Of a stretch of 64,000 nt of DNA, positions 24,226 through 48,706 are shown in pieces (the first letter of the stretch is position 1; each line of letters begins with the position of its first letter). The DNA comes from an uncultured Alphaproteobacteria bacterium (GTDB lineage: Bacteria > Pseudomonadota > Alphaproteobacteria > Rs-D84). The stretch spans positions 20,096 to 84,095 of the forward strand of contig CALXXY010000003.1 of assembly GCA_944392815.1 (NCBI GenBank). Reading direction: 5' to 3'. Made by a program: the position numbers and the translations under genes. The notes below the pieces were generated by a model. It was not told the DNA's origin. It saw only the letters and a program-made list of their open reading frames with translations, and searched no databases.

Positions 24226-24410
24226 TTGGTGCGCGACGCGAGGATACCCGACTCACACCAACCCAAACGTATTTCTGGTGCGGGCGAAGGGAATCCGAAC
24301 GATTAAGCACCCGACGCGCGCCGTTATTAGGCGCAAGTCGTTGGTGCGCGACGCGAGGATACCCGACTCACATCAGCCCAAATAAATCTCTGGTGCGGGC
24401 GAAGGGAATC
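24226..24410. repeat. Imperfect tandem duplication (about 115-bp period) carrying a 20-nt copy of the tRNA-Gly 3' end
   Basis: ttggtgcgcgacgcgaggatacccgactcaca (32/32 identical) ... tggtgcgggcgaagggaatc (20/20) occurs at 24226-24295 and again at 24341-24410. The second copy runs into the real tRNA. Confidence 0.8.
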
Positions 24411-24464
24411 GAACCCTCGTCTTCAGCTTGGGAAGCTGACGTGCTACCATTATACCACGCCCGC
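24391..24464 (-). tRNA. tRNA-Gly (anticodon CCC)
   Basis: Reverse complement GCGGGCGTGGTATAATGGTAGCACGTCAGCTTCCCAAGCTGAAGACGAGGGTTCGATTCCCTTCGCCCGCACCA, 74 nt with a clean cloverleaf. Confidence 0.85.
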
Positions 24465-28042: not shown

Positions 28043-28303
28043 GTCGCGTTCTAAAATGCCCACCGCCACCGGGTCCCGCGCAAACATAGTTTGCGTGGGT
28101 GGTTCCAGGGCGGGGGGGGGGGTGACGGTCGTCAGACCGTCGGGGGGTGGAGCACAATGACCACCCCATCGCAGAACAAAGTTCCCCTCTACGGAGGGGT
28201 GGCACGTAGTGCCGGGGTGGTATCCCGCGCCATTGGCGCGGACAACATCTACACTCTACACTCTAAACTCTATTATTCCCGCGCCGATGGCGCGGGAATA
28301 ATA
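28043..28303 (+). repeat. Repeat element copy A: 114-nt structured G-rich core plus hairpin module(s)
   Basis: About 97% identity with 48328-48441 over the core (28055-28167). Followed by several small hairpins and one 14-bp-stem hairpin (tattattcccgcgcc gatg gcgcgggaataata) that abuts the tolA stop codon. Confidence 0.85.
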
Positions 28304-46118: not shown

Positions 46119-47001
46119 TACCACGCGCTGGCGTATAACACTGAACAGCGCAAATCCAATTAACAATATCATAATTAAAACAAATATCACCATGGACGTT
46201 TGTTCACTGTCTGCAAATGGCAAAGCCATATTCATGCCGTAATATCCAACTATCACGGTCGGCACCACCAAAATAATATTCCACATAGTCAGCCGATTAA
46301 TATACATATTTGAATCCATGTTAATAACGCTTTCGAACGTTTCTTTGATGGATTTCAACATTTTGCTGTACGACGTGACAACTTCTATACCCTGGGATAA
46401 TTCGATACGTGCGTCTTCGGTTAATTCGCGCGCTTCTTCTGTTTTAACGAATCCGCGAACCTTTTCCAATTTATCCAACACAGCAACATTTCCCTTCAGC
46501 CCGGCCATATACAGGGTATAACTGTTTTCAACCTCTAACAGTGCCATCAGTTCGTTTTTACGCACCCGTTCCTGCAAAACCCGTTTGGACGCCAACACGC
46601 GCTTGTTTAATTCCTTTAAAAACCGCAGGTACGATTCGGCGATATAGTAAATAATGTTCAAAACAAATTCTTCGCGCGACGTTTTTTCGTCCCGTTTGAT
46701 TCTGTCCAGCAAATCACAACGCTTGCGACACACAGTAATAACACGATTTGCCGAATAAATTATAGACAGCGGTTCAGTATGCCACAACGTATCAGTTTCG
46801 CGATTTATAATTGGGAAACGCACGATGATAACCTTGTAATCATCTTCGACTTCGAATCGTGGCTGTTCATCAGGATCCAAAATATCTGAAATAGTATCCT
46901 GGTCAATTTTATATTCACTTTGCAGACGTTCAAAATCTTCGTGATCGGGATTTCCAACATTCACCCATGAAAAACTTTTTAATTTTTCAGTCACAAACAT
47001 T
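46116..47001 (-). CDS. corA: Magnesium/cobalt transporter CorA
   Basis: YGMNM signature in the penultimate TM and two C-terminal TM helices. Start probably at MFVTEKLK. Confidence 0.85.
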
Positions 47002-47122
47002 GCGCACCCCCAACGAATAAAAAAATTCAACTCGCCACACTACGTTAAAACTTCGTGTGGCACTCCTTTGCGTTAAACGTTCCGCTTCGGCTTGCCACCC
47101 GAAGCGTCACGGACGCAAAGGG

Positions 47123-47142
47123 TGGTCGGGGCGACAGGAATC
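47123..47142. repeat. 20-nt duplicate of the tRNA-Pro 3' end (tggtcggggcgacaggaatc), about 200 bp downstream of the gene
   Basis: Identical to 47320-47339. Homology stops exactly where the T-loop sequence begins. Confidence 0.8.
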
Positions 47143-47319
47143 CCTCGCACGGTGCCTGGGCACCGGCTGCGGGGCATTCGTGACGATTTGGCCACACTAC
47201 GTTTGCCAAATCTACTCATTGTCGAACCACGGCATGCATTGCATGCAACGCCGATTTCGTTATACCCACAAACATGAATAAAAATAACATCTCTCTGCGA
47301 TTGATATTATTTTTATTCA

Positions 47320-47396
47320 TGGTCGGGGCGACAGGAATCGAACCTGCGACCCCTTGCACCCCATGCAAGTACTCTACCAGGCTGAGCTACGCCCCG
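47320..47396 (-). tRNA. tRNA-Pro (anticodon GGG)
   Basis: Reverse complement CGGGGCGTAGCTCAGCCTGGTAGAGTACTTGCATGGGGTGCAAGGGGTCGCAGGTTCGATTCCTGTCGCCCCGACCA, 77 nt. Confidence 0.85.
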
Positions 47397-48287: not shown

Positions 48288-48706
48288 GTCGCGTTGGGGC
48301 AGTGGTATACGAACGGTGAAATATCAGAATGCCCACCGCCGACCGGGCCCCGCGCAAACATAGTTTGCGTGGGTGGTTCCAGGGCGGGGGGGGGGGTGAC
48401 GGTCGTCAGACCGTCGGGGGGTGGGGCACAATGACCACCCCGTCGCGCAAAGCGTGGCGATCCAGTAAATAAAAAAGTACTGCGGGCGAACGCCCGCAGA
48501 CATATTGCACTGGATTGCCACAGTCGTACGCCAACGTTTTCAACGTTGATCGTACTCCTTCGCAATGACAGGAGCAGAGTGGACATTATCTACACTCTAT
48601 ACTCTACACTCTTCACTCTATTATTCCCGCACCAGCGGGAATAATATAACTCTCCACTCTATTATTGTCACGCTGTGCGTGACAATAATATCACTCTGCG
48701 CGGGAA
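48288..48706 (+). repeat. Repeat element copy B: 114-nt structured core plus longer array of hairpin modules
   Basis: Core at 48328-48441. Hairpins include ctgcgggcg aa cgcccgcag, tattattcccgc acca gcgggaataata and tattattgtcacgc tgtg cgtgacaataata, with ACTCT-type short repeats between. Ends at the stop codon of the 788-aa gene. Confidence 0.85.

Follow-up and report, generated by a model that had tools for sequence, protein, structure and literature searches.

Direct repeats of a tRNA gene's 3' end that start in the T-loop are the classical footprint of integrating elements (PMC9897764, citing Williams 2002). Attachment-site (att)-flanked elements that lack an integrase, known as cis-mobilisable elements (CIMEs), and tandem accretion at tRNA att sites have likewise been documented (PMC5704250; PMC9897764). 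A repeat of this kind lies behind the tRNA-Pro(GGG) gene in a stretch of 64,000 nt from an uncultured alphaproteobacterium (GTDB lineage Rs-D84; assembly GCA_944392815.1, contig CALXXY010000003.1, positions 20,096 to 84,095), which was analysed as a whole and is called the window here. The repeat belongs to a module of a previously undescribed family found behind tRNA genes of gut alphaproteobacteria, and is not a one-off scar. With about even confidence, we read the interval 47123-47319 as one copy of a family of miniature, non-coding and non-autonomous integrative elements that recombine their 20-nt tail with the 3' end of a tRNA gene. In the literature, only generic accounts of att fragments and CIMEs were found; none of the papers found dealt with these modules or with Enterousia mobile elements.

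The 20-mer TGGTCGGGGCGACAGGAATC (plus strand) was found at exactly two sites in the window, 47123-47142 and 47320-47339; no further copy was detected with up to three mismatches allowed, and the chance expectation was zero (100 shuffles). The site at 47320-47339 is the 3' end of tRNA-Pro itself, and the other is an orphan copy 177 bp downstream of the gene, in unchanged orientation. The limit of identity is the T-loop, where gcgagg precedes the orphan copy and ggttc stands in tRNA-Pro. A sequence-only reading of the window had noted a duplicated tRNA-Pro 3' end that stops at the T-loop, separated from the gene by a non-coding interval with two palindromes, and each of these observations was confirmed. 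The match covers 20 of 20 nt and runs from G57 through CCA, the palindromes are GCATGCAATGCATGC at 47233-47247 (in hairpin hp1) and GATTTGGC..GCCAAATC at 47185-47212 (hairpin hp2), and the ORFs (open reading frames) of the 177 bp are short and unconserved only. Length changes inside the hairpins of the corresponding intervals of relatives also fit a coding region poorly. In a remnant of a tRNA-associated island, the bounding tRNA 3' repeat is accompanied by a complete tRNA at one end, as is the case here, and by an integrase gene or pseudogene inside, which neither the 177 bp nor the 3 kb around 66 metagenome copies (see below) contained.

The window module is a complete copy: it has the post-CCA hairpin, a 5' block and the 20-nt tail and, between these last two, the three hairpins and the family's invariant motifs GGTTCGAC.A.GAGTA, GAATGCCCC.CAG and CGAGG. 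The parts are given below from the tRNA gene towards corA, with p values from the own-versus-cross pairing test explained further on.

47320..47396, minus strand: tRNA-Pro(GGG) with encoded CCA (ARAGORN; Rfam tRNA, 59.7 bits).
47320..47339, minus strand: left 20-nt repeat, the functional tRNA-Pro 3' end from G57 to A76, an attL-like core (exact match to 47123-47142).
47273..47321, minus strand: long A/T-rich palindrome CATGAATAAAAATAA(19 nt)TTATTTTTATTCATG at the left end of the module, overlapping the last 2 nt of CCA (inverted repeat I1).
47253..47269, minus strand: 5' block GTGGGTATAACGAAATC, a partial complement of the tail.
47230..47252, minus strand: hairpin hp1 (GGCGTTGCATGC AAT GCATGCCG), which holds the first palindrome of the sequence-only reading (p = 2e-10).
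47213..47228, minus strand: T-loop-like motif GGTTCGACAATGAGTA, invariant in the alignments and with one match in the window.
47185..47212, minus strand: hairpin hp2 (GATTTGGC..GCCAAATC), the second palindrome (p = 2e-13).
47167..47184, minus strand: linker GTCACGAATGCCCCGCAG, a nearly invariant block.
47148..47166, minus strand: hairpin hp3 (CCGGTGCC CA GGCACCGTG; p = 5e-14).
47143..47147, minus strand: junction CGAGG, conserved in the alignments and abutting the tail in every member.
47123..47142, minus strand: right 20-nt repeat (the tail), the orphan copy of the tRNA-Pro 3' end, an attR-like core.
47034..47061, minus strand: downstream hairpin GCCACAC..GTGTGGC with a T-run behind it, a short way ahead of where corA starts.

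A CorA protein search provided 80 loci, one per species, all from Candidatus Enterousia or from metagenome-assembled genomes of gut alphaproteobacteria. In most of these, tRNA-Pro(GGG) lies upstream of corA at a very variable distance, and about 22-24 of the 80 species carry a copy of their own tRNA-Pro 3' end 140-195 nt downstream of the gene. The intervals of more than 20 species align from end to end, with the parts in the order post-CCA hairpin (A-tract, GC-rich stem, T-tract), 5' block (GTGGGTATAACGG..), hp1, GGTTCGAC.A.GAGTA, hp2, linker (..CGAATGCCCCRCAG), hp3, CGAGG and 20-nt tail. The tail matches each species' own tRNA-Pro variant (G/A67, GATT/GAAT), and three cores in tandem are present at one locus (L010). 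The repeat is absent in about 56 of the 80 species, whose flanks are not alignable. In most relatives, the post-CCA position is occupied by a GC-topped, terminator-like hairpin between an A-tract and a T-tract. A symmetric post-CCA hairpin was seen at every module-bearing locus and was absent or replaced by unrelated sequence at most of the module-free loci that were read, which indicates that it arrives with the element. The exceptions are L002 and L059, which retain the hairpin and a short stub of the 5' block (the first 30 nt in L002), and L012, which retains the hairpin alone.

Metagenomes were then scanned with a pattern drawn from the scaffold (the module body) alone, consisting of GGTTCGACNANGAGTA, a gap and GAATGCCCC. 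The scan yielded 66 loci in gut assemblies of human, chicken or ruminant origin; of these, L109 and L143, with common unrelated flanks, look like chance matches; at another locus, the scaffold accompanies a two-piece tmRNA gene, typical of alphaproteobacteria. The scaffold was found behind 13 isoacceptors: Arg(acg/tct/cct), Gln(ctg/ttg), Lys(ctt/ttt), Pro(cgg/tgg/ggg), Ser(gga), Tyr(gta) and Val(cac). What follows CGAGG, a stretch of about 20 nt, differs from one tRNA to the next and copies the 3' end of the adjoining tRNA. When tails were compared with the last 20 nt of that tRNA (49 distinct pairs), 34 lay within three edits, including 18 identical pairs and 10 with a single edit, and the mean edit distance was 3.2, versus 7.3 to tRNAs with other anticodons. 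Ten isoacceptors had at least one perfect tail.

Near-identical scaffolds were found with different tails (L110 and L121, 95% identity; L085 and L121, 91%; the Pro modules L005, L020 and L023 versus the Arg module L083, 89%), and scaffolds at tRNA-Pro(GGG) in different species can fall to 55-60% identity. Taken together, this indicates that over short times the scaffold either moves between tRNA loci or becomes homogenised across them. The sequence-only reading had set an att remnant against a dispersed repeat, to be recognised by copies of the 20-mer at many unrelated sites. The 20-mer itself is not dispersed; in a sense the scaffold body is, with the 20-mer as the end that is specific to each locus. 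Another scaffold type (type 2), which has the junction GGGAATTAC, was present at Pro(ggg), Arg(acg) and Met, and a third type and variants of type 1 also exist. Module size is tightly bounded at 140-195 nt. Over all sequences analysed, the last 17 nt of the tRNA recur no more than 480 nt downstream in 51 of 159 cases.

The position of mismatches within the tails was informative. The 13 near-perfect tails differ from their own tRNAs at 16 places in total, every one of them within positions 58-64, and agree with them throughout 65-76. The near-identical modules of L020 and L023 share the element-type GAAT where the tRNA has GATT, and at position 67 each carries its host's base; Ser-type modules have GAATACTTC in the tail and GAATCCCTTC in the tRNA. 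An element-type edge joined to a host-type acceptor part is what would be expected from recombination between the core and the tRNA gene, with the crossover on the right-hand side of about position 64. Tails of a second class were also observed, in which the T-stem part matches the adjoining tRNA and the acceptor part is truncated or replaced (..TACGGCGACCA, ..AACGGTGACCA, ..GCGGCCGACCA, ..AACGAAGACCA). Such hybrid tails recur (L094, L073, L022, L035, L110, L146, L115 and L119), and the TACGGCGACCA variant occurs with different scaffold types.

Signs of accretion and decay were seen at a number of loci. Like and unlike modules form tandem arrays (L010, L142, L118 and L091), second copies are truncated after about 65, 105 or 125 nt (L023, L044 and L077), and an internal deletion in L072 has left 21 nt and the tail. 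In L122, three 78-nt tandem partial scaffolds (hp2 loop, hp3 and a CGAGCGA junction) without tails lie about 300 nt upstream of the scaffold. Some copies lie apart from an intact tRNA gene: in L082, L086, L144 and L125, only 7-10 nt that look like the end of a tRNA (..CTCCGCCA) stand ahead of the module, and in L103 and L105 a gene-bearing insert lies between the tRNA and an orphan end, which the module then follows. The right boundary of the duplication was found 0, 19, 31-32, about 105 or about 125 nt past CCA. A duplication that extends past CCA into the hairpin, by 19-32 nt or by more, is most simply read as what is left of an additional tandem unit.

Because hairpin lengths vary, RNAalifold on MAFFT alignments gave few pairs, and an own-versus-cross test was used instead, in which the 5' half of each hairpin was paired with its own 3' half and with the 3' halves of other members. 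Own duplexes were far more stable in all three cases (hp1, -7.5 vs -4.3 kcal/mol; hp2, -11.5 vs -6.3 kcal/mol; hp3, -10.3 vs -4.4 kcal/mol). Compensatory helices, a generic mark of structured RNA or single-stranded DNA, are thus present in hp1 (p = 2e-10), hp2 (p = 2e-13) and hp3 (p = 5e-14). The sequence of hp3 is freely variable, with 36 distinct versions that all form a hairpin, and in hp2 the alignments contain the compensatory variants GAC/GTC, GGC/GCC, GAT/ATC and CGG/CCG. The window copy folds with a z-score of -2.46. In hp2 and in the 3' hairpin of type-2 modules, G-U to A-U or G-C changes were observed on the tRNA-sense strand; G-U pairs are rare (31 of about 880), the fold z-score is -2.0 on both strands and folding energies are likewise without asymmetry. 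Assignment of a strand by folding was attempted and discarded: the minimum free energy (MFE) of the whole module favoured the antisense strand, and per-hairpin energies and shuffle z-scores were symmetric.

The helix closed by the 5' block and the tail leaves ACCA free, and its closing pair GGGY:RCCC occurs in U-A, U-G and C-G types. In the window copy, GGGT pairs with GCCC and GAAATC loosely with GATTCC; the RNAalifold pair 64:226 between 5' block and tail occurs as U-G, U-A and C-G, and the MFE fold also closes this stem. Modules of other tRNAs have clearer versions, and in many members the 5' block opens with the acceptor-5' plus T-stem-5' sequence of its cognate tRNA, for example GGGGCACAGGGA at Lys, GCACCAGAAGG at Arg, GGCGG at Val and ACAGG at Pro(cgg). 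The 5' block pairs with its own tail at -11.4 kcal/mol and with foreign tails at -10.3 kcal/mol, a modest difference (p = 0.02). Given the cognate 5' blocks and the better pairing with the own tail, the folded ends would imitate the acceptor/T-arm minihelix of the neighbouring tRNA. A disrupted duplicate tRNA, with the scaffold sitting in the T-loop of a second copy, was considered and rejected: the similarity of the 5' block to the first 56 nt of the cognate tRNA was 15.3, versus 15.2 to others (p = 0.99). The 5' block is therefore not a decayed 5' part of the cognate tRNA, and the module is not just an additional tRNA gene that an insertion has interrupted.

At this locus in the window, rpsA is followed by an adenylate-kinase-like gene and by corA (minus strand, ATG at 47000), then by the orphan copy and the 177 bp, and finally by tRNA-Pro (minus strand) and acpS (plus strand). 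The covariance model R1, which served as a sequence detector only, matched 47123-47230 with 94.4 bits and had no other match in the 64 kb, where the window module is the only copy of the scaffold. A 13-nt direct repeat (D2), AACGTAGTGTGGC, is located at 47034-47046, in the 3' half of the hairpin before corA, and at 47191-47203 within hp2. The region beyond the tail, which shares this sequence with hp2, may be a relic of an older module.

Ten contigs with identical CorA from other samples were used as a conspecific sample. Five carry the full module as in the window, and the other five share a 157-bp deletion whose endpoints are the two copies of the 13-nt AACGTAGTGTGGC (47191-47203 and 47034-47046); the deletion takes the tail, together with the scaffold's 3' half before it and 77 nt past it. 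The module copy in this species thus appears to be inactive and eroding by microhomology deletion. At the junction of the tRNA-Pro 3' end and the hairpin (window 47300-47340), micro-rearrangements were seen in single conspecific strains (L148, L152, L156 and L150), comprising a 10-nt tandem duplication (GCCCCGACCA), a 38-nt tandem duplication (tRNA positions ~39-76), a 4-nt deletion and a change of CCA to CC. Slippage or nicking at the palindrome may be the cause, or else errors in assembly.

Beyond the module, the interval between tRNA-Pro(GGG) and corA in the 80 loci (L001-L080) is a hot spot at which gene content varies, with lengths from 68 nt to 3.5 kb. It usually encodes a small membrane protein of ~145 aa and in some species LysR/helix-turn-helix (HTH) pairs, an ABC-F-like protein, leucine-rich-repeat-like proteins and others. 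In several of these loci, tRNA-Pro(GGG) is inverted. At tRNA-Lys(ttt), an arrangement conserved in five metagenome contigs (L091, L097, L122, L136 and L140) consists of a tailless type-1 scaffold followed immediately by a protein of 399-431 aa with an HNH endonuclease domain (PF14279), encoded on the opposite strand.

For the family as a whole, it is established that the tail stands beside CGAGG, that it lies directly downstream of the matching tRNA, that this tRNA is intact and that a long post-CCA hairpin is supplied. These features could well be those of integrative elements that live at tRNA 3' ends in Candidatus Enterousia and related gut alphaproteobacteria, which we regard as an evenly balanced proposition and the likeliest of the readings considered. 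The circular form of such an element would measure ~190-215 bp and consist of tail, post-CCA hairpin, 5' block and scaffold. For insertion, the tail (an attP-like core) would recombine with the tRNA gene at its 3' end (attB), with the crossover usually to the right of position ~64. The orphan copy would thus keep an element-type left edge and a host-type acceptor part, and the tRNA would keep its own body. The recombining enzyme would act in trans and would recognise the invariant motifs and the three hairpins, perhaps as a single strand in its folded form, in the manner of integron attC, CTX-type attP or REP (repetitive extragenic palindromic)/IS200-type ends. The sequence-only reading had proposed that the duplicate is not due to chance and points to a common mechanism at tRNA 3' ends. 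This holds. The anatomy fits recombination between the tRNA gene and a copy of the tRNA end borne by the element, and tandem pile-ups of different types at a single tRNA are likewise known of integrative elements.

Several results weigh against an integrative element. Retargeting would need a change of ~14 nt in the core and often also of the complementary 5' 'anti-tail', which classical att recombination does not explain. The variable right boundary (0 to ~125 nt past CCA) is harder to reconcile with a fixed-site enzyme than with crossover between homologous sequences or the decay of arrays, and compensatory hairpins are unusual for double-stranded att arms. No recombinase-type ORF was found near tRNA-Pro or tRNA-Gly in the window, and no protein family was common to the 3-kb surroundings of the metagenome copies, where clustering of all ORFs gave syntenic housekeeping clusters only. 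Among the insert-associated ORFs that were compared with Pfam, the matches were to a GNAT acetyltransferase, to an HNH endonuclease, to a LysR regulator and, weakly, to an HTH; three ORFs had no match, and none was a recombinase. Neither blastn against phages and plasmids nor IMG/VR provided an attP-bearing phage or plasmid relative, and the type-2 motif was unmatched; a single IMG/VR match to the 17-mer was dismissed as chance, being located inside an ORF without a tRNA. Precise loss of the module between the 20-nt repeats was seen in none of the ten conspecific contigs. The tyrosine integrase invoked by the sequence-only reading was deduced rather than found, as none lies near either tRNA of the window or within 3 kb of any of the 66 metagenome copies.

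Known elements resemble the module in part. As with the T-loop/3'-end sites of tyrosine integrases (P4-like; Williams 2002), the identical block spans T-loop to CCA, the tRNA is made whole again and an orphan 3' fragment marks the far end; the module differs in that no integrase is present, the arms are compensatory hairpins and the core differs between near-identical elements. Integron attC sites, the folded attP of CTX phage (XerCD), REP/REPIN sequences and IS200/IS605 ends are likewise small (60-150 nt), with variable sequence, conserved hairpins, short invariant motifs and action in trans, and the partly complementary 5' block and tail of the module could mimic a duplex target. However, no IntI, RAYT or TnpA was identified, the module has several hairpins instead of one imperfect palindrome, and its target is a tRNA 3' end. 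Miniature inverted-repeat transposable elements have terminal inverted repeats and a fixed target-site duplication, whereas the ends of the module change with the tRNA, its right limit varies from 0 to ~125 nt past CCA and the left edge of the tail is element-type and not host-type.

The main rival possibility, which we hold only tentatively, is that the module is the gene for a tRNA-linked structured small RNA, serving as a mimic of the tRNA end or as a guide. The core with its three hairpins and invariant motifs would presumably bind a common partner, the 5' block and tail would close into an acceptor/T-arm-like minihelix with an ACCA overhang, and the likeness of scaffolds across loci would result from concerted evolution or the spread of a gene family. 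As a mimic, the RNA would serve as substrate or decoy for a reader of tRNA 3' ends, be it an enzyme, a toxin or a reverse transcriptase. As a guide, its 3' 20 nt would act as in TnpB/Cas12 RNAs, with the T-loop TTC as the adjacent motif. Known guide RNAs consist of a scaffold and a variable 3' segment of 20 nt, an architecture that recurs in the modules. An RNA is favoured by the compensatory hp1, hp2 and hp3, by the invariant single-stranded motifs, including the T-loop-like GGUUCGA, and by the G-U to A-U/G-C changes on the tRNA-sense strand in hp2 and the type-2 3' hairpin. The GGGY:RCCC closing-pair types, the cognate 5' blocks at Lys, Arg, Val and Pro(cgg), the better own-tail pairing (p = 0.02) and the fold of the window copy (z = -2.46) point the same way, and most copies are bracketed by terminator-like hairpins in the orientation of the tRNA. 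Set against this, a scan of the window copy for promoters and terminators returned nothing above shuffles, folding energy and z-score are strand-symmetric (-2.0 on both strands) and only 31 of about 880 pairs are G-U. Truncated copies, tandem arrays and strain-level deletions also suggest dispensable DNA.

Likeness to TnpB omega RNA, Cas12 crRNA and the delocalised crRNA of tRNA-homing type V-K CRISPR-associated transposons consists in a scaffold with a variable segment of ~20 nt, equal to a target beside the T-loop TTC, and in the association with tRNAs. The module differs from them in that no effector gene is linked within 3 kb, no Rfam omega-RNA family matches, the target is intact directly upstream and no strand bias proves an RNA; a guide identical to the intact neighbouring tRNA and preceded by TTC would moreover be self-targeting. 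With tRNA-like RNAs (the tmRNA domain, YrlA, viral tRNA-like ends and the tag of the Mauriceville retroplasmid) the module shares the GGUUCGA T-loop-like motif, the acceptor/T-arm-like closing stem and a 3' NCCA. It differs from these in giving no covariance-model match, in a mimicry specific to each neighbouring tRNA and in its many copies. The Rfam tmRNA, Y-RNA-like and omega-RNA families did not match the module, an Rfam 15 gathering search of the window returned tRNA only, and permissive scans of the window module and a type-2 copy (L041) also returned tRNA only, with other best matches at the level of noise (E > 0.1). The modules might be expressed as programmable tRNA-end RNAs, either guides for an unlinked RNA-guided protein that recognises the 3' ends of tRNA genes or minihelix mimics acting as primer, tag or decoy for an enzyme whose substrate is the tRNA 3' end, although we consider this rather doubtful. 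The unlinked protein might, on an equally speculative footing, serve homing or the targeting of att-bearing invaders. A version at the DNA level, in which the 5' block and tail imitate a duplex tRNA end and thereby form a retargetable attP read by structure, is conceivable with similarly low confidence.

That an integrase-bearing island or prophage in tRNA-Pro simply decayed to 177 bp, as the sequence-only reading had supposed, is improbable. The tRNA 3' repeat from the T-loop is indeed the classical footprint (PMC9897764), and assorted accessory genes lie between tRNA-Pro and corA in relatives. However, the 177 bp form a complete conserved module without pseudogene remnants that is found in ~24 of 80 species and at 13 isoacceptors, so that the proposed decay did not stand up. 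End-to-end alignment across more than 20 species and 12 other isoacceptors, with conserved motifs and compensatory hairpins, largely refutes a plain scar, since independent decay would not converge on one structure of 140-195 nt free of gene fragments. CIMEs resemble the modules in their attL/attR-like tRNA 3' copies, the lack of integration and transfer genes and the tandem arrangement at one tRNA (PMC5704250). CIMEs are kilobase-scale decay products from ICEs (integrative conjugative elements) or IMEs (integrative mobilisable elements), whereas the modules are uniform, structured, 140-195 nt long and present at many tRNAs. Their uniform architecture without gene remnants does not fit a decayed ICE or IME, and neither an integrase nor a parental ICE was seen. 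The least probable explanation, and in our view a very improbable one, is that the copy arose locally and without any dedicated mechanism, by slippage in replication or by tandem duplication where a tRNA terminator is rich in palindromes. The 10-nt and 38-nt tandem duplications, the 4-nt deletion and the 13-nt microhomology deletion in conspecific strains are of this kind, and the duplication often extends into the post-CCA hairpin, but slippage cannot make a conserved scaffold of ~125 nt or place it behind 13 tRNAs, and the junction CGAGG|G57 is invariant.

The sequence-only reading had also described the same footprint at tRNA-Gly. The duplication of a tRNA 3' end was found there too, but its extent and body differ, with ~24 nt of tRNA and 50 nt of downstream sequence repeated. 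The tRNA-Gly(CCC) repeat (24226-24300 and 24341-24414) has 91% identity, and the inserted unit of 115 bp is made up of a 45-nt unique body, ~24 nt of tRNA end and 50 nt of downstream flank. The motif of this body was absent from all fetched loci, and the unit did not match the model of the tRNA-Pro scaffold. Among the conspecific contigs compared (L158-L167), L167 carries a single-copy tRNA-Gly allele, which indicates that the unit is polymorphic by precise gain or loss; L164-L166 start inside the repeat region. The first 20 nt past CCA at tRNA-Gly are mosaic and hypervariable among strains and between the copies. An unrelated dispersed repeat was also present in the window, a GC-rich intergenic sequence of ~120 nt at 28055-28172 and 48328-48446 (97% identical) that had no match in Rfam. 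About 80-150 nt past it, a second common block with CTACACT heptamers follows (28248-28303 and 48596-48646).

It is routine to dismiss fragments of tRNA 3' ends as the scars of integration. In the present case, such a fragment forms the variable end of a unit of 150-200 nt that is conserved and structured and is spread over many tRNA genes in gut bacteria with reduced genomes, with no recombinase seen nearby. For genome annotation, the modules are relevant to orphan tRNA ends, to assembly breaks at module loci and to false 'islands'. If mobile, they would to our knowledge be the smallest att-flanked integrative elements described, and how one scaffold gains the core of a new tRNA would become a concrete question. 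If they are RNAs, they would represent a new class of tRNA-specific mimics or guides.

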